A stretch of 16,422 bases of DNA, taken from IMG/VR virus record IMGVR_UViG_2877285697_000001, positions 1 through 16,422 of that record; one strand, given 5' to 3'. Numbering within the stretch: the first letter of the stretch is position 1; each line of letters opens with the position of its first letter. This document shows, in pieces, positions 2,142 to 16,422 of the stretch. Origin of the DNA: a virus. Taxonomy: Duplodnaviria; Heunggongvirae; Uroviricota; Caudoviricetes. The notes under the pieces are model-generated. The model was not told the DNA's origin. It was given only the letters and a program-made list of their open reading frames with translations, and did no database searches. The position numbers and the translations under genes are program-made.

Positions 2142-3224
2142 TTAGAACTGGTAAACCATACCTACAGCAACGATATCATCGGTAGCAACGCCAGATGCTT
2201 TCGTGAAATCGCTCTTATCAATCAGGTTGATTTTGTAATCAACAAAAGTGGACATATTTTTGTTGAAGTAATAGGTTGCACCTACATCAATATATTCAAC
2301 CAGGTCCTGATCACCCCACGCACCCAAGTCTTTTCCTTTAGATTGCAGGTAAGCAACGGACGGACGCAGACCGAAGTCGAACTGATATTGTGCAACTACT
2401 TCGAAGTTTTGTGCTTTGTTGGCAATATGGTTATTACCAAAAACAGTCATGTTCTGGGTTTCAGAATAGGTGGTAGCCAGATAGATGTTGTTCGCATCAT
2501 ATTTCAGACCAGCTGCCCATACTTCAGCATTTTGACCAGATGCATTCAGGCTGTTGTTACCGTAGATAACCTGATTATTAGTGCGGTCAGATTTAGCATA
2601 GGTTGCACCTACACCGAATCCTTCATACTCATAAGTAGTGGAGAAACCGAAACCATCACCATTAGCTTCAGTTACGTCAGTGCGGTCATTTTTACCCTGA
2701 TACTGAGCAGCAAAGTTCAGACCATCAACCAGACCAAAGAAGTCGTTGTTACGATAAGTTGCAACACCAGTGGTGCGACCAGTCATGAACACATCTGTTT
2801 GGCTCCAGGTATCGCCACCGAATTCTGGCAGAACGTCAGTCCACGCACCGATGTCATATGCTACACCGTAGTTACGGCCGTAATCGATTGAGCCGTAGTC
2901 CCCGAATTTCAGGCCTGCAAATGCAAGACGGGTTTTGTCTTTGGAGGAGCCTTGAGATTCAGCGCGGTTACCTTTGAATTCATATTCCCACTGACCGAAA
3001 CCAGTCAGTTGATCGTTGATTTGGGTTTCACCTTTGAAGCCAAGACGGGCATAAGTAGTATCACCATCATCTGCATCATTAGAGGAGAAGTAGTGCTTGG
3101 CATTAACTTTCCCGTACAGATCCAGCTTGTTACTGTCTTTATTATAAATTTCAGCTGCCTGAGCAGACATCGCCATCAGTACTGATGCAGCTACAGCAGA
3201 AATTGCCACTGTTAATTTTTTCAT
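2142..3224 (-). CDS. nmpC: Outer-membrane general porin NmpC (OmpC/OmpF/OmpD family), intact 360 aa with signal peptide
   Basis: [23 protein letters not shown] signal peptide, porin repeats, C-terminal ...VGMVYQF; sits between Q and holin as in DLP12. Confidence 0.9.
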
Positions 3225-4408: not shown

Positions 4409-4472
4409 TGAGGTAGCCTGAGTTTAACGGACACTCCTTCCTGAAATAGAATGGCATCAGAAGGAGCTAATA

Positions 4473-4775
4473 ATGAGCAGAAAAACCCAACGTTACTCTA
4501 AAGAGTTCAAAGCCGAAGCTGTCAGAACGGTTCTTGAAAATCAACTTTCGATCAGTGAAGGCGCTTCCCGATTATCCCTTCCTGAAGGCACTTTAGGACA
4601 ATGGGTTACCGCCGCCAGAAAAGGGCTCGGTACTCCTGGTTCCCACACGGTGGCTGAACTGGAATCTGAAATTCTGCAACTGCGTAAGGCGTTAAATGAA
4701 GCTCGCCTTGAGCGAGATATATTAAAAAAAGCAACAGCGTATTTTGCACAGGAGTCGCTGAAAAATACGCGTTAA
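4473..4775 (+). CDS. IS600 OrfA
   Basis: 100-aa ORF; differs from the copy at 1-303 by one residue (H58 versus R58). Confidence 0.9.
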   Translation: MSRKTQRYSKEFKAEAVRTVLENQLSISEGASRLSLPEGTLGQWVTAARKGLGTPGSHTVAELESEILQLRKALNEARLERDILKKATAYFAQESLKNTR

Positions 4776-4810: not shown

Positions 4811-5629
4811 ATGTGTCAGGTATTTGGTGTATCCAGGAGCGGTTATTACAACTGGGTACAGCATGAACCCTCAGACAGAAAACAAAGTGATGAGCGGCTA
4901 AAACTGGAGATTAAGGTGGCACATATCCGCACTCGCGAAACATATGGAACCCGGCGGCTCCAGACGGAGCTGGCAGAGAATGGCATCATCGTTGGTCGTG
5001 ACCGGCTGGCACGTCTTCGTAAGGAGCTAAGGCTACGCTGTAAGCAGAAACGCAAGTTCAGAGCGACTACGAACCCGAACCACAATCTGCCAGTTGCGCC
5101 AAATCTGCTGAACCAGACGTTCGCTCCTACAGCACCAAATCAGGTCTGGGTGGCGGACCTGACGTATGTTGCCACACAGGAGGGATGGTTGTACCTCGCT
5201 GGCATCAAAGATGTTTATACGTGCGAAATTGTCGGCTACGCCATGGGAGAGCGCATGACAAAAGAGCTGACAGGTAAAGCCCTGTTTATGGCGCTCAGGA
5301 GCCAGCGCCCACCTGCCGGGCTAATCCACCACTCTGATCGAGGTTCACAGTACTGCGCATACGATTACCGGGTCATACAGGAGCAGTCTGGTCTGAAAAC
5401 ATCAATGTCGCGTAAAGGTAACTGTTACGACAACGCTCCGATGGAAAGCTTCTGGGGAACGCTGAAAAATGAGAGCCTGAGCCACTATCGTTTTAATAAC
5501 CGGGATGAAGCCATCTCAGTAATACGGGAATACATTGAGATTTTCTACAATCGTCAGCGTCGTCACTCTCGTCTGGGGAATATCTCCCCGGCAGCCTTCA
5601 GGGAAAAATATCATCAGATGGCTGCTTAA
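4811..5629 (+). CDS. IS600 OrfB, DDE transposase catalytic subunit (made as OrfAB by -1 frameshift)
   Basis: 272-aa ORF with rve-type DDE motifs (...HSDRGSQY...NAPMESFWGTLK...), frame -1 relative to orfA. Confidence 0.9.
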   Translation: MCQVFGVSRSGYYNWVQHEPSDRKQSDERLKLEIKVAHIRTRETYGTRRLQTELAENGIIVGRDRLARLRKELRLRCKQKRKFRATTNPNHNLPVAPNLLNQTFAPTAPNQVWVADLTYVATQEGWLYLAGIKDVYTCEIVGYAMGERMTKELTGKALFMALRSQRPPAGLIHHSDRGSQYCAYDYRVIQEQSGLKTSMSRKGNCYDNAPMESFWGTLKNESLSHYRFNNRDEAISVIREYIEIFYNRQRRHSRLGNISPAAFREKYHQMAA

Positions 5630-5766: not shown

Positions 5767-6915
<1,149 letters not shown>

Positions 6916-8832: not shown

Positions 8833-8887
8833 GGTAATGCTGCCAACTTACTGATTTAGTGTATGATGGTGATTTTAAGGTGCTTGC

Positions 8888-9163
8888 GTGGCTTCCATTT
8901 CCATCAGATGTCCTTCCTGCTCCGCTACTGAAGGCGTGGTGCGTAACGGCAAAAGCACTGCCGGACATCAGCGCTATCTCTGCTCTCATTGCCGTAAAAC
9001 ATGGCAACTACAGTTCACTTACACCGCCTCTCAGCCCGGTACGCACCAGAAAATCATTGATATGGCCATGAATGGCGTCGGATGTCGCGCCAGTGCACGC
9101 ATTATGGGCGTTGGCCTCAACACGGTTTTACGTCACTTAAAAAACTCAGGCCGCAGTCGGTAA
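8888..9163 (+). CDS. insA: IS1 InsA (91 aa)
   Basis: [66 protein letters not shown]... Confidence 0.95.
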
Positions 9164-9585
9164 CCTCGCGCATACAACCGGGCAGTGATGTGATTGTCTG
9201 CGCTGAAATGGACGAACAGTGGGGCTACGTCGGTGCTAAATCACGTCAGCGCTGGCTGTTTTACGCGTATGACAGGATACGGAGGACGGTTGTGGCGCAC
9301 GTCTTCGGTGAACGCACTCTGGCCACACTGGAGCGTCTTCTGAGCCTGCTGTCGGCCTTTGAGGTCGTGGTATGGATGACGGATGGCTGGCCGCTGTATG
9401 AATCACGCCTGAAGGGAAAGCTGCACGTTATCAGCAAGCGTTACACTCAGCGCATTGAGCGACATAATCTGAATCTGAGACAACATCTGGCAAGGCTGGG
9501 ACGGAAGTCACTGTCGTTCTCAAAATCGGTGGAGCTGCATGACAAGGTCATCGGGCATTATCTGAACATAAAACACTATCAGTAA
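9082..9585 (+). CDS. insB: IS1 InsB reading frame (expressed as InsAB' by frameshift)
   Basis: 167-aa ORF ...[65 protein letters not shown]. Confidence 0.9.
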
Positions 9586-9694
9586 GTTGGAGTCATTACC
9601 GAGAACGATTTATCACCGCAGTCGGGCTAAATCCGCTAGTCTGTTGGTATGTAAGTGGTTGCATAGTCATTGCCTTATCAGTTAACGCCGCAGT

Positions 9695-9922
9695 TTAGGC
9701 GGCAGAATTACTCGCGTTAAACAATGGTGCGAGGTCGGGACGAATATCTGCTGGTTTAATCTTTCCACCAGTGGCTGAGACAATTTTCATTACATAGCGG
9801 GCATCAATTCCGCCACCGTGTAGCCAACGCCAAACTGTGGGTTGGGCTACACCGCATAGATCTGCCAGTCGTTTTTGACTACCTGTAATACTGATTGCGA
9901 GTTGAATGGTTTGATTTGTCAT
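9695..9922 (-). CDS. Cro-like HTH regulator (75 aa)
   Basis: MTNQTIQLAISITGSQKRLADLCGVAQPTVWRWLHGG... HTH; ATG (complement of 9920-9922) with AGGA 9 nt upstream; divergent from the repressor gene. Confidence 0.7.
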   Translation of the reverse strand: MTNQTIQLAISITGSQKRLADLCGVAQPTVWRWLHGGGIDARYVMKIVSATGGKIKPADIRPDLAPLFNASNSAA

Positions 9923-10032
9923 TATCAATTCCTGTTGGTATTGCAATGAATGAATAATAGCAATGCGTATTAATCCAAGCAATAGCAAAACGTGTTTTGA
10001 CCATCAATACGCAAGCGTATAAATTAAAACTT
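9923..10032. promoter_or_regulatory. Divergent immunity control region (pR-like and pRM-like promoters with operator dyads)
   Basis: Minus-strand promoter: -35 TTGCTT (complement of 9977-9982), 17-bp spacer, -10 TATTAT (complement of 9954-9959). Dyads AATAGCAATGCGTATT (9956-9971) and ATACGCAAGCGTAT (10007-10020). TATAAA (10017-10022) lies 10 nt before the cI ATG. Confidence 0.45.
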
Positions 10033-10725
10033 ATGAAAAAAGAAACTCTTGCTGATCGCTTAAACCTAGCGATGGAACAATCTGGAATGTCTCAAGGCGC
10101 TCTTGCAAAGGCGTCTGGCGTAGCTCAACCCACAATCTGGAGACTGACAAGCGGCAACGCGCGCGGCTCAACAAAAATTGTTGAAATAGCTAATGCATTG
10201 GGGGTTCGAACAGAATGGCTCTCATCAGGCATAGGCCCGATGAGAAATGACGGTCAACAATCAGGGAAGCCTGCTGTCAGCCATTCAAAATACTTCAAGA
10301 TTGACGTTCTTGATATAGAAGTCAGTGCCGGGCCGGGTGTAATCAACCGTGAGTTTGTAGAAGTTCTACGCTCGGTTGAGTACTCGTTTGACGATGCTCG
10401 TCACATGTTCGATGGCAGGAAGGCGGAAAATATCCGCATCATTAACGTGCGTGGTGACAGCATGTCAGGAACGATCGAACCAGGTGATCTTCTGTTCGTT
10501 GATATCACGGTTAAATCTTTCGACGGTGATGGTATCTATGCGTTTCTGTATGACGACACAGCCCATGTAAAGCGCCTGCAAATGATGAAGGATAAGCTGC
10601 TGGTTATCTCTGATAACAAGAGCTACTCACCGTGGGACCCGATCGAGAAAGACGAGATGAACCGGGTATTCATCTTCGGGAAAGTCATCGGAAGCATGCC
10701 GCAGACGTATAGGAAGCATGGGTAG
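10033..10725 (+). CDS. CI-like prophage repressor, N-terminal HTH plus C-terminal S24 (LexA-like) autopeptidase (230 aa)
   Basis: MKKETLADRLNLAMEQSGMSQGALAKASGVAQPTIWRL... HTH; C-terminal ...RGDSMSGTIEPGDLLFVD...HVKRLQ... Ser/Lys dyad motifs; ATG 10033 chosen inside track ORF 9997-10725. Confidence 0.85.
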   Translation: MKKETLADRLNLAMEQSGMSQGALAKASGVAQPTIWRLTSGNARGSTKIVEIANALGVRTEWLSSGIGPMRNDGQQSGKPAVSHSKYFKIDVLDIEVSAGPGVINREFVEVLRSVEYSFDDARHMFDGRKAENIRIINVRGDSMSGTIEPGDLLFVDITVKSFDGDGIYAFLYDDTAHVKRLQMMKDKLLVISDNKSYSPWDPIEKDEMNRVFIFGKVIGSMPQTYRKHG

Positions 10726-10836
10726 TGAAGGACGTGTCAACTCTATTTTGTAAGCTATCCAGACTCACAGTTGCAGATCGACGAGTAACTTACATACAGC
10801 ACAAAAAAACAATATGCGCGTGCTTTTAGACTAGAC

Positions 10837-10851
10837 TTACCATAATGGTAA
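10837..10851. promoter_or_regulatory. Perfect 15-bp palindrome TTACCATAATGGTAA overlapping the first ATG of the toxin gene
   Basis: Exact dyad symmetry (7-1-7) read directly from the sequence. Confidence 0.35.
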
Positions 10852-11255
10852 CAAGTATGATTCTTAGCAGATATGTGGGAACTCCTCCCCGTGATGGCGA
10901 GGACAGAAAGATTCAAGGTGGTCCGCTTTATTTAGATATCATTGATTTGATTGATGAATGTGACACACTGCCTTGGACCAGACGGTGTATCAGGGATGTT
11001 CAATCGCTTTCTTTAGATGCAGATGACATCAAATCTATGGTGATAAAAGCAGTCACTAAAGGGAGATTTCTAGGTTCAGAATGGTGTCAAGGCAGTAAAC
11101 CAGGTGTATGGGCAGCTTGTGATGCTTATAGCTTTGAGCACTCATTTTGGTGCCAAGCTATGCATAAAGAACTTAATAACGAGTTCTACATTAAATTTTT
11201 TGTAAACATTACTGGCAATGTAGTGCTTACAGTATCTCTTCATCTCTCTAATTGA
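10845..11255 (+). CDS. MqsR-like toxin (putative mRNA interferase); start may instead be ATG 10857
   Basis: Blocks shared with recalled E. coli MqsR: ...TRR...LSLD, DDIKSM (MqsR SDFYKSM), EFYIKFFVNITGNVVLTVSL (MqsR QVYLKITVIHDVLIVSF); toxin gene precedes antitoxin as in mqsRA. Confidence 0.6.
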   Translation: MVTSMILSRYVGTPPRDGEDRKIQGGPLYLDIIDLIDECDTLPWTRRCIRDVQSLSLDADDIKSMVIKAVTKGRFLGSEWCQGSKPGVWAACDAYSFEHSFWCQAMHKELNNEFYIKFFVNITGNVVLTVSLHLSN

Positions 11256-11279
11256 GTGATGATAAATGAGGATTTTTAT

Positions 11280-11867
11280 ATGAGAAACAACAACATATGT
11301 CCAGTTTGTGGTGTAGGTCATCTCACCGTGGAGATGGAGTATGATGATGTTACTTATAAAGGGGAAACAAAAAATCTCCCAATAAGGTTTTCTGTGTGTG
11401 ATCAATGTGGTTCGGAAACTGCCACACCAGTCGATTTACGAGAAAACAAACGAATTTTCAATGAATACAAAAAGTCTATCGATGGACTTTTAACAGGAAA
11501 AGAATTAAAAAAAATTAGAACTGAAGTATGGATGATAACCCAGCAAAAGGCATCCTCTATATTTGGTGGGGGGCCTAAGGCATTTTCCAAGTATGAATCT
11601 GATGATGTCATTCAATCAGAAGCAATGGATAAACTGATGCGTTTAGCAGCAGAAGTTCCTGATGCATTCAAAAGGTTACGGGAATTATCTGGCGAAATCA
11701 AAGTTGAAAGAACAGTCTCATCATCTAAATCTTTACCTATATGGAAATCTGAAGCAAAAGCACAATTTGAAAACGATGATCAGGGATTTGACAGCAAATC
11801 ACCAGCCCAAACAAAAATGAATCAAACATCAATAAAGATAAAAACTGTTGCTAAGCGGGTAGCATGA
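11280..11867 (+). CDS. MqsA-like antitoxin (zinc-ribbon plus XRE-type HTH) with about 60-aa C-terminal extension (195 aa)
   Basis: MRNNNICPVCGVGHL...CDQCGSE zinc ribbon; LTGKELKKIRTEVWMITQQKASSIFGGGPKAFSKYE matches the recalled MqsA HTH block (IFGGGVNAFSRYE); GAGGA 7 nt upstream of ATG 11280; canonical MqsA is about 131 aa. Confidence 0.75.
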   Translation: MRNNNICPVCGVGHLTVEMEYDDVTYKGETKNLPIRFSVCDQCGSETATPVDLRENKRIFNEYKKSIDGLLTGKELKKIRTEVWMITQQKASSIFGGGPKAFSKYESDDVIQSEAMDKLMRLAAEVPDAFKRLRELSGEIKVERTVSSSKSLPIWKSEAKAQFENDDQGFDSKSPAQTKMNQTSIKIKTVAKRVA

Positions 11868-12367
11868 TGAATGAACTTCTTAGATCAGCAATAGACGCAT
11901 TATCAATAATGCATATCAATATCAGAGAATCTAACTTTGCTTTTTCTGAAGGGTATAATAGCTTTAACTTCAACAGCATAAATAAGCAAACACAATCATT
12001 TCGTAAGATAAAAAAAATCGAAGCTATTGAATTAGTAAGTGACGATGACTCATTAAAAAATGAGCTATATTACTCTTTTCACTACTCAGTTGGGCTTAGA
12101 TTTATTGCAAAATCCGAAGAAACATCTAAAGACGAAAATGATGTTGATACAATTTTTTCTATAGAAGCAATTTTTGAGGCGATATATCGCTCAAAGAGAG
12201 AATTATCTAAAGAAGAGTTAGAAGAATTTGCTAAGCAAAATGTAGGTTTTAATGTATGGCCTTTTTGGCGAGAGTATGTTCAAAACAGCACATCCAGAAT
12301 GGGAATTACTACAATAGCTATACCATTCTTTAAATTCAATAAATCAGACATACCTTCATTAGATTAA
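11864..12367 (+). CDS. SecB-like chaperone (167 aa), translationally coupled to the antitoxin (ATGA overlap)
   Basis: N-terminal LSIMHINIRESNFAFS versus SecB FQIQRIYTKDISFEAP; C-terminal TIFSIEAIF and NVWPFWREYVQNSTSRMG...IPFFKF versus SecB GGIFSIAGIE and NILFPYARECITSMVSRG...APVNF (E. coli SecB from recollection). Confidence 0.55.
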   Translation: MMNELLRSAIDALSIMHINIRESNFAFSEGYNSFNFNSINKQTQSFRKIKKIEAIELVSDDDSLKNELYYSFHYSVGLRFIAKSEETSKDENDVDTIFSIEAIFEAIYRSKRELSKEELEEFAKQNVGFNVWPFWREYVQNSTSRMGITTIAIPFFKFNKSDIPSLD

Positions 12368-12381
12368 ATTCAAATATAACT

Positions 12382-12408
12382 CCCGGCTACCGTGCCGGGT
12401 TTTCTTTT
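12382..12408 (+). terminator. Rho-independent terminator ending the repressor/TAC transcription unit
   Basis: CCCGGC-taccgt-GCCGGG stem-loop followed by TTTTCTTTT, 15 nt after the chaperone stop. Confidence 0.65.
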
Positions 12409-12549
12409 GTCCCCTCCCCTCATCACACACCGTTCAAAAAACCACCACGACCTCACTTCAGTTATCGCTATGCGATGCAAGTCACAAAATTAATTCTTTT
12501 TGCTATCAAACATTTAATATCAAAACACATCAACTAATAGCAGTGAGTA

Positions 12550-12578
12550 TTGGTATCACCAATAGCAATAGCTATTAT
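12550..12578 (+). promoter_or_regulatory. pL-like promoter with embedded operator dyads, reading toward gam-bet-exo
   Basis: -35 TTGGTA (12550-12555), 17-bp spacer, -10 TATTAT (12573-12578); dyads TTGGT-atc-ACCAA (12550-12562) and AATAGC-aata-GCTATT (12561-12576); the latter resembles the oR dyad at 9956-9971 and overlaps the -10 in the same way. Confidence 0.45.
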
Positions 12579-12771
12579 CACCATATCGCAACAACACAAC
12601 GATACGGCAACCACCTGATTCACCGTTGCGATGACCGCTTAGATCCGCAGCTTGAATTTCAGCAGGCTTCGGGGAGTGCGAGGGATGAAACGGACGCGTG
12701 AACGTCGGTGTGACCAGCTGAAATCAACTCAACATTTCATACCTTAGTCGCTTCAACGAGGCGGCTTAGTT

Positions 12772-13062
12772 ATGACAACCGGCGGCCATCCACCGCCTGA
12801 ATACGCGCAGAAGTCTTTATATGTTCAGCAGCCCAGCTTACGGGCAGGAGTTTTTATGGTTCATCAACATTACGGAACGCAGACCGTTAATCGCGGTGCG
12901 GTCATGCCAGGAATGCTGGTCAAACGCAAAGATGGTACCTGGACTGCATCAGCTAATTTACGCGGACGACTTTATCTGCATCGCGGCATTGAGCGCACTT
13001 ATACCCGTGACTTGCTCGTGGAAGTTTTTCTCGACGGACGCGGCAACGGTCTGAATCACTAA
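12772..13062 (+). CDS. Hypothetical protein in the kil position (start uncertain: 12772, 12856 or 12904)
   Basis: ORF ends at TAA 13060-13062 inside the TCACTAA motif that I recall as the lambda kil stop overlapping the long gam leader; protein unlike lambda Kil. Confidence 0.4.
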   Translation: MTTGGHPPPEYAQKSLYVQQPSLRAGVFMVHQHYGTQTVNRGAVMPGMLVKRKDGTWTASANLRGRLYLHRGIERTYTRDLLVEVFLDGRGNGLNH

Positions 13063-13137
13063 TCCCCTTTCCTGTTTTCCGAATCAGCCTGGCATTCCGC
13101 GGGCGATTTTTTCACAGCCATTTTCAGGAGTTCAGCC

Positions 13138-13434
13138 ATGAACGCTTATTACATTCAGGATCGTCTTGAGGCTCAGAGCTGGGCGCGTCACTACCAGCAG
13201 ATCGCCCGTGAAGAGAAAGAGGCAGAACTGGCAGACGACATGGAAAAAGGCCTGCCCCAGCACCTGTTTGAATCGCTATGCATCGATCATTTGCAACGCC
13301 ACGGGGCCAGCAAAAAAGCCATTACCCGTGCGTTTGATGACGATGTTGAGTTTCAGGAGCGCATGGCAGAACACATCCGGTACATGGTTGAAACCATTGC
13401 TCACCATCAGGTTGATATTGATTCAGAGGTATAA
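13138..13434 (+). CDS. gam: Gam (short form GamS, 98 aa), RecBCD inhibitor
   Basis: [56 protein letters not shown]..., near-identical to recalled lambda Gam; AGGAG 7 nt upstream. Confidence 0.9.
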
Positions 13435-13439
13435 AACGG

Positions 13440-14225
13440 ATGAGTACAGCACTCGCAACGCTGGCTGGGAAGCTGGCTGAACGTGTCGGCATGGATTCTG
13501 TCGACCCACAGGAACTGATCACCACTCTTCGCCAGACGGCATTTAAAGGCGATGCCAGCGATGCGCAGTTCATCGCATTGTTGATCGTCGCCAACCAGTA
13601 CGGCCTTAATCCGTGGACGAAAGAAATTTACGCCTTCCCTGACAAGCAGAACGGCATCGTTCCGGTGGTGGGCGTTGATGGCTGGTCCCGTATCATCAAT
13701 GAAAACCAGCAGTTTGATGGCATGGACTTTGAGCAGGACAATGAATCCTGCACATGCCGGATTTACCGCAAGGACCGTAATCATCCGATCTGCGTTACCG
13801 AGTGGATGGATGAATGCCGCCGCGAACCATTCAAAACCCGCGAAGGCAGAGAAATCACGGGGCCGTGGCAGTCGCATCCCAAACGGATGTTACGTCATAA
13901 AGCCATGATTCAGTGTGCCCGTCTGGCCTTCGGATTTGCTGGTATCTATGACAAGGATGAAGCCGAGCGCATTGTCGAAAATACCGCATACACTGCAGAA
14001 CGTCAGCCGGAACGCGACATCACTCCGGTTAACGATGAAACCATGCAGGAGATTAACACTCTGCTGATTGCCCTGGATAAAAAATGGGATGACGACTTAT
14101 TGCCGCTCTGTTCCCAGATATTTCGCCGCGACATTCGCGCATCGTCAGAACTGACACAGGTCGAAGCAGTGAAAGCTCTCGGATTCCTGAAACAGAAAGC
14201 CACTGAGCAGAAGGTGGCAGCATGA
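13440..14225 (+). CDS. bet: Bet (Red-beta) single-strand annealing protein (261 aa)
   Basis: [72 protein letters not shown]..., near-identical to recalled lambda Bet. Confidence 0.95.
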
Positions 14226-14902
14226 CACCGGACATTATCCTGCAGCGTACCGGGATCGATGTGAGAGCTGTCGAACAGGGGGATGATGCGTGGCACAAAT
14301 TACGGCTCGGCGTCATCACCGCTTCAGAAGTTCACAACGTGATAGCAAAACCCCGCTCCGGAAAGAAGTGGCCTGACATGAAAATGTCCTACTTCCACAC
14401 CCTGCTTGCCGAGGTTTGCACCGGTGTGGCTCCGGAAGTTAACGCTAAAGCACTGGCCTGGGGAAAACAGTACGAGAACGACGCCAGAACCCTGTTTGAG
14501 TTCACTTCCGGCGTGAATGTTATTGAATCCCCGATCATCTATCGCGACGAAAGTATGCGCACCGCCTGCTCTCCCGATGGTTTATGCAGTGATGGCAACG
14601 GCCTTGAACTGAAATGCCCGTTTACCTCCCGGGATTTCATGAAGTTCCGGCTCGGTGGTTTCGAGGCCATAAAATCGGCTTACATGGCCCAGGTGCAGTA
14701 CAGCATGTGGGTGGCACGAAAAGATGCCTGGTACTTTGCCAACTATGACCCGCGGATGAAGCGTGAAGGCCTGCATTATGTCGTGATTGAGCAGGATGAA
14801 AAGTACATGGCGAGTTTTGACGAGATGGTGCCGGAGTTCATCGAAAAAATGGACGAGGCACTGGCTGAAATTGGTTTTGTATTTGGGGAGCAATGGCGAT
14901 GA
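14222..14902 (+). CDS. exo: Exo (Red-alpha) 5'-3' exonuclease (226 aa)
   Basis: [68 protein letters not shown]...; ATGA overlap with bet as in lambda. Confidence 0.95.
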
Positions 14903-15081
14903 AGCATCCTCACGATAATATCCGGGTAGGCGCGATCACTTTCGTCTACTCCGTTACAAAGCGAGGCTGGGTATTTCCCGGCCTTTCTGTTACCCGAAAT
15001 CCCCTGAAAGCACAGCGGCTGGCTGAGGAGATAAATAATAAACGGGGAGCTGTATGCACAAAGCATCTCCTGTTGAGTTAA
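14893..15081 (+). CDS. Lambda orf60a-like small protein (62 aa)
   Basis: [33 protein letters not shown]..., position immediately after exo as in lambda. Confidence 0.65.
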
Positions 15082-15245
15082 GAACGAGCATTGAGATGGC
15101 ACATAGCCTCGCTCAAATTGGAGTCAGGTTTGTGCCAATACCAGTAGAAACAGACGAAGAATTTCATACGTTAGCCGCATCCCTTTCACAAAAGCTGGAA
15201 ATGATGGTGGCGAAAGCAGAAGCAGATGAGAGAGACCAGGTATGA
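15054..15245 (+). CDS. Lambda orf63-like small protein (63 aa)
   Basis: Track [66 protein letters not shown]; position and size as lambda orf63. Confidence 0.55.
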   Translation: MHKASPVELRTSIEMAHSLAQIGVRFVPIPVETDEEFHTLAASLSQKLEMMVAKAEADERDQV

Positions 15246-15321
15246 CAACCACTGAATGCATTTTTCTGGTAGCGGGCTTCATATTCTGTGTGCTTATGCT
15301 TGCCGACATGGGACTTGTTCA

Positions 15322-15537
15322 ATGACACCTCAGCAAGAAAACGCCCTTCGCAGTATTGCCCGTCAGGCTAATTCTGAAATCAAAAAAGCCAGACAGCAGT
15401 TTCCGGATAAAAACGTCGATGACATTTGCCGTAGCGTACTGAAGAAGCACCGCGAAACGGTAACGCTGATGGGATTCACACCGACTCATTTAAGCCTGGC
15501 GATCGGCATGTTAAACGGCGTCTTTAAGGAACGGTGA
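15322..15537 (+). CDS. Lambda orf61-like small protein
   Basis: MTPQQENALRSIARQANSEIKKARQQFPDKNVDDICRSVLKKHRETVTLMGFTPTHLSLAIGMLNGVFKER from ATG 15322 inside track ORF 15256-15537. Confidence 0.55.
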   Translation: MTPQQENALRSIARQANSEIKKARQQFPDKNVDDICRSVLKKHRETVTLMGFTPTHLSLAIGMLNGVFKER

Positions 15538-15559
15538 GCATGAAAAACAAAATCATCAT

Positions 15560-15583
15560 GGAGCTACAGGCTCCTTTTTTATT
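15560..15583 (+). terminator. Candidate intrinsic terminator after the orf61-like gene
   Basis: GGAGC-tacag-GCTCC followed by TTTTTTATT. Confidence 0.45.
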
Positions 15584-15635
15584 ATTCGCATTCACCCTCA
15601 AGCGTATTAACCAACAATTCAGGGATTAATGAAAG

Positions 15636-15669
15636 ATGGCAGACATCATTGATTCAGCATCAGAAATTG
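15636..15669 (+). pseudogene. 5' stub (MADIIDSASEI...) of a gene interrupted by IS1; by position possibly the lambda ea22 equivalent
   Basis: ATG at 15636, 11 codons, then the frame enters the IS1 left end at 15670. Confidence 0.3.
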
Positions 15670-15724
15670 GGTAATGCTGCCAACTTACTGATTTAGTGTA
15701 TGATGGTGATTTTAAGGTGCTTGC

Positions 15725-16000
15725 GTGGCTTCCATTTCCATCAGATGTCCTTCCTGCTCCGCTACTGAAGGCGTGGTGCGTAACGGCAAAAGCACTGCCG
15801 GACATCAGCGCTATCTCTGCTCTCATTGCCGTAAAACATGGCAACTACAGTTCACTTACACCGCCTCTCAGCCCGGTACGCACCAGAAAATCATTGATAT
15901 GGCCATGAATGGCGTCGGATGTCGCGCCAGTGCACGCATTATGGGCGTTGGCCTCAACACGGTTTTACGTCACTTAAAAAACTCAGGCCGCAGTCGGTAA
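15725..16000 (+). CDS. insA: IS1 InsA
   Basis: Identical 91-aa translation to 8888-9163. Confidence 0.95.
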
Positions 16001-16422
16001 CCTCGCGCATACAACCGGGCAGTGATGTGATTGTCTGCGCTGAAATGGACGAACAGTGGGGCTACGTCGGTGCTAAATCACGTCAGCGCTGGCTGTTTTA
16101 CGCGTATGACAGGATACGGAGGACGGTTGTGGCGCACGTCTTCGGTGAACGCACTCTGGCCACACTGGAGCGTCTTCTGAGCCTGCTGTCGGCCTTTGAG
16201 GTCGTGGTATGGATGACGGATGGCTGGCCGCTGTATGAATCACGCCTGAAGGGAAAGCTGCACGTTATCAGCAAGCGTTACACTCAGCGCATTGAGCGAC
16301 ATAATCTGAATCTGAGACAACATCTGGCAAGGCTGGGACGGAAGTCACTGTCGTTCTCAAAATCGGTGGAGCTGCATGACAAGGTCATCGGGCATTATCT
16401 GAACATAAAACACTATCAGTAA
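15919..16422 (+). CDS. insB: IS1 InsB reading frame
   Basis: Identical 167-aa translation to 9082-9585; stop TAA at the window end. Confidence 0.9.

Follow-up and report, generated by a model that had tools for sequence, protein, structure and literature searches.

A probable lambda-type immunity switch with predicted 16-bp CI/Cro operators in an IS1-truncated lambdoid prophage

The viral DNA analysed here (the window, 16,422 nucleotides) carries two divergent regulatory genes with start codons 110 bp apart. On the plus strand, cI (10033-10725) encodes a 230-aa repressor with a 434-like HTH, containing the helix GVAQPTIWRL, and a C-terminal S24 autopeptidase domain. Pfam assigns HTH_3 and Peptidase_S24 (1.3e-18), the 434 repressor is matched in the PDB (1e-5), and the motifs SAGPG, GDSM and VKRL are seen in the translation; with Ala-Gly, Ser and Lys present, the domain would fit the self-cleaving type. 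On the minus strand, cro (9695-9922) encodes a 75-aa protein with a YdaS/P22-Cro-like HTH (Pfam YdaS_toxin, 9.6e-15; phrog_35) and the helix GVAQPTVWRW, so that both proteins have GVAQPT(I/V)WR in common. Each is 100% identical to its counterpart in PhiR70_1, whose record gives E. coli C as host. Three plus-strand cargo genes (10845-12367) occupy the rexAB position after cI: an unknown 136-aa protein with no match in Pfam, PHROGs, NCBIfam or PDB, an MqsA-family antitoxin (11280-11867) and a SecB-like protein (11864-12367). All three probably share with cI a transcript from its promoter, by analogy with the cI-bstA operon of BTP1, which has one transcription start (PMC7067206). A plus-strand intrinsic terminator found by scanning (12382-12399; six G-C pairs followed by a T-run) lies at the end of this operon, upstream of the left operator.

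The predicted right operator, OR, consists of three 16-bp sites at a spacing of exactly 25 bp (starts at 9956, 9981 and 10006). OR1 (9956-9971, AATAGCAATGCGTATT) overlaps by 4 bp the -10 element of pR, a minus-strand promoter (9954-9982) with the -35 element TTGCTT (9977-9982), a 17-bp spacer, the extended -10 element TGCTATTAT (complement of 9954-9962) and a predicted start at about 9947. The -35 element has three of the six consensus positions and falls below the -35 threshold of the consensus promoter scan; its TTG and the -10 element are conserved over three genera. OR2 (9981-9996, AATAGCAAAACGTGTT) overlaps the pR -35 element by 2 bp and abuts that of the pRM-like promoter, the predicted activating position. 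It is unchanged in nine of the ten same-immunity loci compared, PhiR30_1 differing by one base; its right half is degenerate, AACACGTT, which counts against an operator reading. OR3 (10006-10021, AATACGCAAGCGTATA) lies within the spacer of the pRM-like promoter and overlaps its -10 element. This plus-strand promoter (9997-10025), given by the consensus scan, combines TTGACC (from 9997), a 17-bp spacer and TAAATT (to 10025), with TATAAA at 10018-10023 as alternative. Its predicted start, 10032-10033, falls on the cI ATG (10033), which no Shine-Dalgarno sequence precedes, and the cI mRNA would thus be leaderless. A leaderless or near-leaderless transcript is plausible also by analogy with the CP-933P switch, where 5′ RACE placed the start of the repressor transcript at its translation start (PMC8630535). 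A fourth operator-like dyad (9927-9942, AATTCCTGTTGGTATT) is located 29 bp from OR1, over the cro Shine-Dalgarno sequence, at +5 to +20 of the pR transcript. It has one mismatch to the operator motif and one good half-site only; it is kept in E. coli relatives, and its right half alone in Klebsiella and Salmonella. Its status as an operator is uncertain.

The predicted left operator, OL, overlaps promoter pL beyond the repressor operon and combines a strong pair of sites at 25-bp spacing (12536 and 12561) with a conserved distal site (12492). OL1 (12561-12576, AATAGCAATAGCTATT) overlaps the pL -10 element by 4 bp, and OL2 (12536-12551, AATAGCAGTGAGTATT; AATAGCAATAAGTATT in most relatives) overlaps the -35 element by 2 bp, so that both overlaps are the same at pR and pL. 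Promoter pL (12550-12578, plus strand; TTGGTA-17-TATTAT, start about 12585) was found independently by the consensus scan, the family consensus of its -35 element being TTGATA. Three A-to-G changes in OL2 and the -35 element of the window are absent from all relatives compared, and may have weakened both pL and OL2 here. The boundary of the immunity-module swap, at 12584/12585, coincides with the predicted pL start. The distal element (12492-12516) is made of the operator-like AATTCTTTTTGCTATC (12492-12507), with one good half-site, and an overlapping exact match to the IHF consensus, TATCAAACATTTA (12504-12516). The element is invariant among 27 unique relatives, and its operator-like part is kept in the OL of Klebsiella and Salmonella phages. 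Two other candidates were rejected: the TATCACC repeats flanking OL1, considered as lambda-like half-sites, are attributed to chance since they are unconserved in relatives, and the dyad ATCGCTATGCGAT (12465-12477), being conserved in both immunity types, is not immunity-specific.

The initial annotation had described OR1, OL1 and, as a 14-bp dyad (ATACGCAAGCGTAT, 10007-10020), most of OR3, all with correct coordinates. Its promoters pR (TTGCTT-17-TATTAT on the reverse complement of 9954-9982) and pL are likewise borne out, as is its remark that at both the -10 element opens with the final four bases of the dyad. The third dyad does overlie TATAAA, with 9 nt between that hexamer and the cI ATG, and the short-leader or leaderless pRM transcript that it suggested is the plausible one discussed above. 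The dyads were real and the set incomplete: OR2, OL2 and the exact 25-bp phasing had been missed.

The dyads follow a pseudo-symmetric 16-bp consensus, AATA(G/C)(C/G)-N4-(G/C)(C/G)TATT. Their sequences, geometry, statistics, conservation and co-variation are shown directly. The motif AATASSNNNNSSTATT with at most one mismatch is found six times in the 16.4-kb window, always in OR or OL, against 0.44 expected (mean of 300 dinucleotide shuffles; maximum 4), with two exact matches against 0.007 expected; AATAGCNNNNGCTATT with at most three mismatches is found 21 times against 7.8, a count reached by 0 of 200 shuffles. As the motif was derived from the window's own sites, other loci provide the cleaner test. 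In phage loci that share the cI type, whether from Klebsiella, Salmonella or E. coli, the motif matches OR and OL only; the scanned heteroimmune loci have no match, and a single stray match falls in a phage whose repressor region is unrelated. OR1 to OR3 are retained in phages of the three genera, BTP1 and ST160 included, while the inter-site spacers diverge. Among the 27 unique OL variants, OL1 has 0.19 and OL2 0.5 changes per nucleotide, whereas the spacers have 2.67 and 1.71.

The recognition helices of cI and Cro agree with each other inside an immunity type and change from one type to the next, and the operators follow them. All ten loci with the cI helix AQPTIWRL have four to seven motif matches each, whereas the 14 loci with SQAAIQKI have none and carry ACAAC-type dyads at the same positions, within otherwise identical flanks; these loci belong to related phages and are not independent events. 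In the heteroimmune relatives, OL, OR, cro and the cI N-terminal domain are exchanged together between identical flanks. Taking into account that: (i) cro and cI are divergent; (ii) at least three related dyads in OR overlap pR and the pRM-like promoter; (iii) a second cluster overlaps pL beyond the repressor operon, and (iv) operators co-vary with repressor and Cro specificity, we consider it very probable that a lambdoid (Bievrevirus/DLP12-like) prophage has its immunity switch here, with the dyads as predicted CI/Cro operators. The pR, pRM and pL assignments, the shared operator geometry and the non-lambda specificity are supported by the same statistics, cross-genus conservation and helix co-variation.

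From pL, transcription would enter a leader of about 270 nt (12585-12855, plus strand) without N gene, the first 190 nt or so being 97% conserved, with stem-loops predicted at 12585-12632, 12636-12680 and 12741-12775. Four genes follow on the same strand: kil, of the FtsZ-inhibitor family (12856-13062; phrog_294, 1e-37; NCBIfam match to residues 29-96), gam (13138-13434; Pfam Gam, 3e-65), bet (13440-14225; Pfam RecT, 3e-33) and exo (14222-14902; Pfam YqaJ, 8e-29). For kil, an in-frame upstream ATG at 12772 is the annotated start in some relatives, and the codon-position-3 substitution pattern starts at 12858. Terminator scans gave no convincing intrinsic terminator between pL and exo. No ORF between pL and gam has an N-family match, whereas BTP1, with the same OL type, has N and P22-type boxA/boxB.

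The arms of the motif are A/T-rich and overlap -10-like sequence, and the dyads could in principle be a chance A/T-rich likeness between promoters or the targets of a regulator distinct from CI and Cro. The shuffle statistics, the exact 25-bp phasing, the conservation over three genera amid divergent spacers and the concerted swap with the recognition helices of both proteins make this highly improbable. The two distal elements are another matter, and there is a substantial, somewhat less than even, chance that they are not operators, 12492-12516 being an IHF or UP-type activating site for pL and 9927-9942 the conserved cro ribosome-binding site only. Each has just one good half-site; the AGGA Shine-Dalgarno sequence falls within 9927-9942, and TATCAAACATTTA, some 75 bp ahead of the pL start, is an exact fit to WATCAANNNNTTR. 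Stimulation of lambda pL by upstream IHF sites is known. Nevertheless, what Klebsiella and Salmonella retain is AATTCNTTTNGCTATC, ST160 and L071 having lost the IHF match, the heteroimmune phages have their own half-site (ACAACC) at both corresponding places, and a match with at most one mismatch within the 28 bp that separate OR1 from cro would occur by chance with a probability of about 1e-3, as estimated from the shuffle rate.

Alternatively, pL might not drive the Red genes directly: the structured leader would be a cis-acting RNA, put-like or other, acting on processivity or on kil, or would hide an N-like peptide (12685-12747, MKRTRERRCDQLKSTQHFIP). Antitermination without N has a precedent in HK022 (PMC9378689). 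The leader is 97% conserved among heteroimmune phages, from the swap boundary at the predicted start onward; only pair-preserving changes are found in its predicted stems, the P1 stem persists despite loop replacement in L071 and L074, and in PhiR70_1 a good terminator follows orf61, upstream of xis/int. However, compared with HK022 putL/putR the leader shares random 7-11-mers only, as does the PhiR70_1 pR operon, and there is no second copy after pR. Its two stem-loops at +1 span about 96 nt and are unrelated in sequence to put, a two-stem RNA of about 70 nt; Rfam gave no meaningful match (whole window at gathering thresholds; 12380-12900 at permissive ones), the folding energy is not better than that of shuffles (z = -0.9), no double compensatory changes were seen, and the pL-exo interval lacks a convincing terminator. 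As to the peptide, the Arg-rich 20-codon ORF at 12685 resembled the arginine-rich motif of N and was rejected because 64 unique relatives show a TAG/CAG polymorphism and, in some of them, a 5-nt indel, with third-position changes not in excess. Phage phi80 shares just the 60 nt before kil, and the gene annotated as N in its record is unrelated to the leader. We thus regard an indirect control of Red as unlikely. Equally doubtful is that the RNA of 12585-12771 is a new cis-acting element replacing N/nutL, either a put-like antiterminator for reaching xis/int or a kil regulator; if true, Red and excision functions would be under the repressor plus an RNA device, not the repressor alone, in a widespread lambdoid lineage without N.

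Returning to the CI/Cro switch, we infer binding, occupancy order, activation at OR2, the leaderless start and RecA-dependent induction as follows. CI (434-type HTH plus S24 domain) and the YdaS-type Cro, through their near-identical recognition helices, would bind the 16-bp operators. CI at OR1 and OR2 would occlude the -10 and -35 elements of pR, and from OR2, abutting the pRM -35 element, would probably activate pRM. OR3, inside pRM, would provide negative autoregulation of cI and is likely the preferred Cro site. From pRM, a probably leaderless mRNA of cI and the three cargo genes would run to the terminator at 12382-12399. At OL, the two sites positioned exactly as at pR would shut off pL which, once derepressed in a presumably RecA-dependent induction, would transcribe the conserved N-less leader and then kil-gam-bet-exo. 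With no convincing terminator before exo, the initial proposal that Red is under direct repressor control holds at this conditional level.

That the circuit is functional and of non-lambda specificity, as had also been proposed, stands for the specificity and is limited for the function. An IS1 copy with terminal inverted repeats (8833-9600; direct repeat D1, inverted repeat I4, transposase Pfam match) cuts a CII-like gene and, relative to PhiR70_1 (blastn), stands in place of some 4 kb (cII-O-P-ren-emrE plus part of ybcK). The 5′ 23 codons or so of this YdaT/CII-like activator gene remain (9601-9670, minus strand); its intact PhiR70_1 homologue is a CII-like protein of 181 aa (phrog_163). A second IS1 in direct orientation (15670-16422; repeat D1, 100% identical) runs off the window end. 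Since cII, O and P are deleted, the prophage cannot replicate and its switch controls only cro and kil/red. The whole window is absent as such from complete E. coli genomes (coverage at most 47%). An intact repressor module can persist in an IS1-truncated prophage, where it would still guard kil and Red and drive a toxin-antitoxin-chaperone-like cargo.

The immunity type, non-lambda and already in databases, appears to be the ST104/BTP1/ST160 specificity, and among 5426 complete E. coli genomes, 718 (about 13%) carry it. The first 74 cI residues are 87.8% identical to the ST104 group, with an identical helix GVAQPTIWRL. ST160 and BTP1 both have an unaltered OR2, OR3 is unaltered in ST160 and one base off in BTP1, and OR1, OL1 and OL2 keep their outer half-site arms with some inner bases changed. 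'ST104' is a distinct predicted specificity in the list of Casjens and colleagues, whose 92%-identity rule would not assume equal specificity here (PMC2629481); the conserved operators argue for it despite the lower cI identity. Literature searches (the operator sequence; BTP1 with operator; ST104/ST64T operators) returned no description of such operators. The consensus with its 25-bp O1/O2/O3 spacing offers a usable operator definition for an immunity type that is common yet apparently uncharacterised experimentally, with uses in annotation, in predicting cross-immunity between prophages of different genera and in repressor/operator part design.

In Klebsiella phages 6 LV-2017 and ST11-VIM1phi8.2 and P22-like Salmonella phages ST104, ST160, SE1 and BTP1, the first 71-75 cI residues are about 87-88% identical, the recognition helix is essentially the same (one conservative change in one Klebsiella phage), and OR1-3/OL1-2 half-sites, spacing and promoter overlaps are as in the window. 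Klebsiella OL has one extra strong site, and all these phages, unlike the window, carry gp24, an N of the P22 type, with boxA/boxB downstream of pL, and have other replication and virion modules. CP-933P of E. coli O157:H7, also a cryptic prophage, shares a YdaS-type Cro, a YdaT-type CII and toxin-antitoxin cargo after the repressor gene (PMC8630535, PMC9986795); in its 97-bp OR, PaaR2 and YdaS bind four palindromes at even spacing, and in its OL three sites, and its repressor mRNA is leaderless (PMC8630535). Its switch is experimentally tested whereas that of the window is known from sequence; its operator consensus, GTTTAGTAA, and its specificity are different, and PaaR2 (15 kDa) is too small for the S24 domain present in the 230-aa cI. 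HK022 has a similar cI C-terminal domain (by eye, not quantified), no N gene and a structured RNA from the pL transcript start, a predicted one in the window; the window differs in having no putL/putR similarity, no pR-side twin and no nun gene, and the HK022 operators, TGAAC-N5-GTTCA, are unrelated. Among solved DNA-binding domains the closest is that of phage 434 (E about 1e-5), whose repressor and Cro, with common recognition-helix residues, read the same pseudo-symmetric operators, as predicted here; those operators are of 14 bp (ACAA-N6-TTGT), and the helix is TQQSIEQL instead of AQPTIWRL. Lambda operators are of 17 bp at 23-24-bp spacing and unrelated in sequence to the 16-bp, 25-bp-spaced sites of the window, which further differs in its 434/XRE-type DNA-binding domain, YdaS/P22-Cro-like Cro, YdaT-like CII, absence of N and nutL, and kil of phi80/Rac type placed first in the pL operon. 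Both have divergent cro/cI, a tripartite OR, O1 and O2 over the -10 and -35 elements of pR and pL, OR2 adjoining the pRM -35 element and OR3 inside pRM, a leaderless cI mRNA (probably so in the window), accessory genes after cI with a terminator before OL, gam-bet-exo in the pL operon and an S24 domain of the self-cleaving type in the repressor. The general understanding of lambdoid switches is unchanged by this result, and the finding, correct and not surprising, is that of what is very probably an ordinary lambda-type switch.

The dyads placed by the initial annotation at pR, pRM and pL are real, and every string and coordinate was correct when re-read from the sequence; the set was incomplete, however, and a fuller array was found. 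OR1 (9956-9971), OR2 (9981-9996) and OR3 (10006-10021) lie in the cro-cI intergenic region with start-to-start distances of exactly 25 bp, and OL2 (12536-12551) and OL1 (12561-12576), also 25 bp apart, are located at pL. At both pR and pL the last 4 bp of O1 are common to the -10 element and the last 2 bp of O2 to the -35 element. The -35 of pRM begins where OR2 ends, and OR3 falls within the pRM spacer and -10. A promoter scan independently recovered pL (TTGGTA-17-TATTAT) and the pRM candidate (TTGACC(9997)-17-TAAATT(10025)); pR (TTGCTT-17-TATTAT) has a weak -35 and an extended -10 (TGCTATTAT). Most operators are composed of one AATAGCAA half-site and one AATAC(G/T)NN half-site, an inequality that, speculatively, could underlie differential affinity for CI and Cro. 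Allowing at most one mismatch, AATASSNNNNSSTATT has six matches in the 16.4 kb, all of them in the OR and OL regions (expected 0.44, maximum 4 in 300 dinucleotide shuffles), and two exact matches were observed against 0.007 expected.

The proteins flanking OR are a 75-amino acid YdaS/P22-Cro-like HTH protein (cro, 9695-9922, minus strand) and a repressor with a 434-like HTH and an S24 peptidase domain (cI, 10033-10725), each 100% identical to its counterpart in Escherichia phage PhiR70_1. The 'Cro' of the PhiR70_1 GenBank record (positions 5279-5404 of that genome, our L001; window 9879-10004) was rejected as a spurious 41-amino acid ORF, 126 nt including the stop, that spans OR and is also present in Lambda_4C10; cro itself is the 75-amino acid gene.

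The strongest evidence for the operator reading, from sequence comparison, is the co-variation seen in heteroimmune relatives (IdasGreatGrand, PhiR34_1, PhiR47_2, PhiR26_1 and many IMG/VR contigs). In these phages cro, OR, the cI N-terminal domain and about 100 bp of OL are swapped together, the OL-flanking sequences are kept, and ACAAC-type dyads stand at the same promoter positions; in IdasGreatGrand, where the domain was checked, the cI C-terminal domain is 100% identical. Across the compared loci the association of helix type with motif is complete: 4-7 motif matches were found in all 10 loci with helix AQPTIWRL, and none in the 14 with SQAAIQKI. Within each type cI and Cro have a common recognition helix (GVAQPTIWRL and GVAQPTVWRW in the window type, VSQAAIQK and VSQQAVYK in the heteroimmune type), a pattern known from the 434 repressor and 434 Cro.

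The dyads recur in homologous phages, at E. coli, Klebsiella and Salmonella loci of the same cI type. Between cro and cI of these phages all three sites are kept nearly base for base and the inter-site spacers diverge. Among 27 unique E. coli OL variants, OL1 and OL2 accumulate 0.19 and 0.5 substitutions per nucleotide, against 2.67 and 1.71 in the spacers. The OL of Klebsiella and Salmonella same-type phages retains at least two sites overlapping the -35 and -10 as in the window, and is otherwise not alignable to it. In the Salmonella phage BTP1 (L097, 3424-3500) OR3 reads AATACTCAAGCGTATA and OR1 reads AATAGCAATTAGTATT, where other same-type phages have AATACGCAAGCGTATA and a sequence ending in GCGTATT, respectively. 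BTP1 shows high spontaneous induction.

Two outer elements, AATTCCTGTTGGTATT at 9927-9942 (the sixth match to AATASSNNNNSSTATT) and AATTCTTTTTGCTATC at 12492-12507, are ambiguous as operators. The former covers the cro Shine-Dalgarno sequence and could be kept as a ribosome-binding site; the latter is kept in three genera, but an exact IHF-consensus match (12504-12516) overlaps it. An operator role for the two elements is favoured by the heteroimmune phages, which have a half-site of their own type at each corresponding position. By the same comparison the block at 12440-12487 (CTTCAGTTATCGCTATGCGATGCAAGTCACAAAAT, dyad ATCGC-TAT-GCGAT) was ruled out as an operator, since phages of both immunity types conserve it upstream of OL. 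Cargo exchange by recombination may have its boundary here, or the block may be a site of another kind.

The switch is of the lambdoid CI/Cro type and of the ST104 class, a predicted repressor specificity class (PMC2629481) for which our literature search found no published operator definition; the operator set of the window provides a well-supported example. The non-lambda specificity first proposed is supported but not new, since the cro-OR-cI(N-terminal) module occurs at ≥95% identity in 718 of 5426 complete E. coli genomes. As to a functional immunity circuit, the switch is supported but the prophage is defective. Positions 9601-15669 are collinear with, and 99% identical to, the early-left and immunity region of PhiR70_1 (other close relatives are Lambda_4C10 and Perceval, genus Bievrevirus), and the IS1 at 8833-9600 stands in for about 4 kb of PhiR70_1 comprising most of the CII-like gene, O, P, ren, the SMR transporter gene (emrE) and part of ybcK, so that the prophage is unable to replicate. 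Three A-to-G changes within 11 bp (12543, 12545 and 12553), in the pL -35 (TTGATA to TTGGTA) and the centre of OL2, do not occur in any of 50 further distinct OL-region sequences (about 90 loci) and may make promoter or operator weaker in the defective prophage. With these corrections the original interpretation is supported.

That the repressor controls the Red genes directly is likewise a reasonable reading, since only weak terminator-like hairpins precede exo. From OL/pL the operon runs through a long leader (about 270 nt) to kil (FtsZ-inhibitor family), gam, bet and exo, and none of the ORFs from pL to gam has a match to an N family. The first 190 nt or so of the leader (12585-12771) are 97% conserved, also across heteroimmune phages, the conservation starting at the immunity-swap boundary. 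Changes in the predicted stem-loops (12585-12632, 12636-12680 and 12741-12775) are all wobble-compatible, and one stem survives loop replacement in two contigs. Folding energy is unremarkable; the leader is without a match in Rfam, resembles neither of the HK022 put RNAs and has no counterpart after pR. Its last hairpin, together with the 60 nt preceding kil, also occurs in phi80 and HK225, where one base pair seems to have changed in a compensatory way. An arginine-rich 20-codon ORF in the leader (12685-12747, MKRTRERRCDQLKSTQHFIP) lacks a coding signature; both the pattern of substitutions in it and a 5-nt indel speak against a coding role. It is in frame with kil and its TAG is CAG in many relatives, hence the longer 'Kil' of 125-139 amino acids called by annotators.

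Three cargo genes (10845-12367) occupy the rexAB/bstA slot 3' of cI, followed before OL/pL by a strong hairpin terminator (12382-12399, terminator scan). The first product (136 amino acids) has no family match, the second is an MqsA-family antitoxin (TIGR03830, 6e-33), and the third (167 amino acids) is SecB-like, its top PDB match being the M. tuberculosis TAC chaperone Rv1957 (E = 0.011); together they look like a tripartite toxin-antitoxin-chaperone module. Relatives carry GevT/GevA, HipA-like or other genes there.

The window combines prophage and insertion-sequence DNA in a mosaic that is found as a whole in none of the complete E. coli genomes searched. A second IS1 (15670-16422, the window end), identical to the left copy and in direct orientation, gives the immunity and Red block a composite-transposon-like layout. 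A perfect 367-bp inverted repeat (1-367 and 4409-4775) encloses a porin gene (2142-3224) and part of a phage lysozyme gene, and genes for IS3-family transposases are located at 4811-5629 and 5918-6586.

The arrangement fits a lambda-like logic. In the model, CI occupying O1 and O2 would keep pR and pL silent, OR2-bound CI would be placed to activate pRM, and OR3 would serve autorepression and be the site that Cro takes first. The cI gene is devoid of a Shine-Dalgarno sequence, and the predicted transcript start is its ATG. In CP-933P, an E. coli O157:H7 prophage whose switch, like that of the window, pairs a YdaS-type Cro with a YdaT-type CII, a leaderless repressor mRNA was proved by 5' RACE and protein sequencing, and footprints revealed that OR contains four evenly spaced palindromes and OL three (PMC8630535). 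In BTP1, whose operators are of the window's type, cI and the downstream cargo gene have a single transcription start under all conditions tested (PMC7067206).
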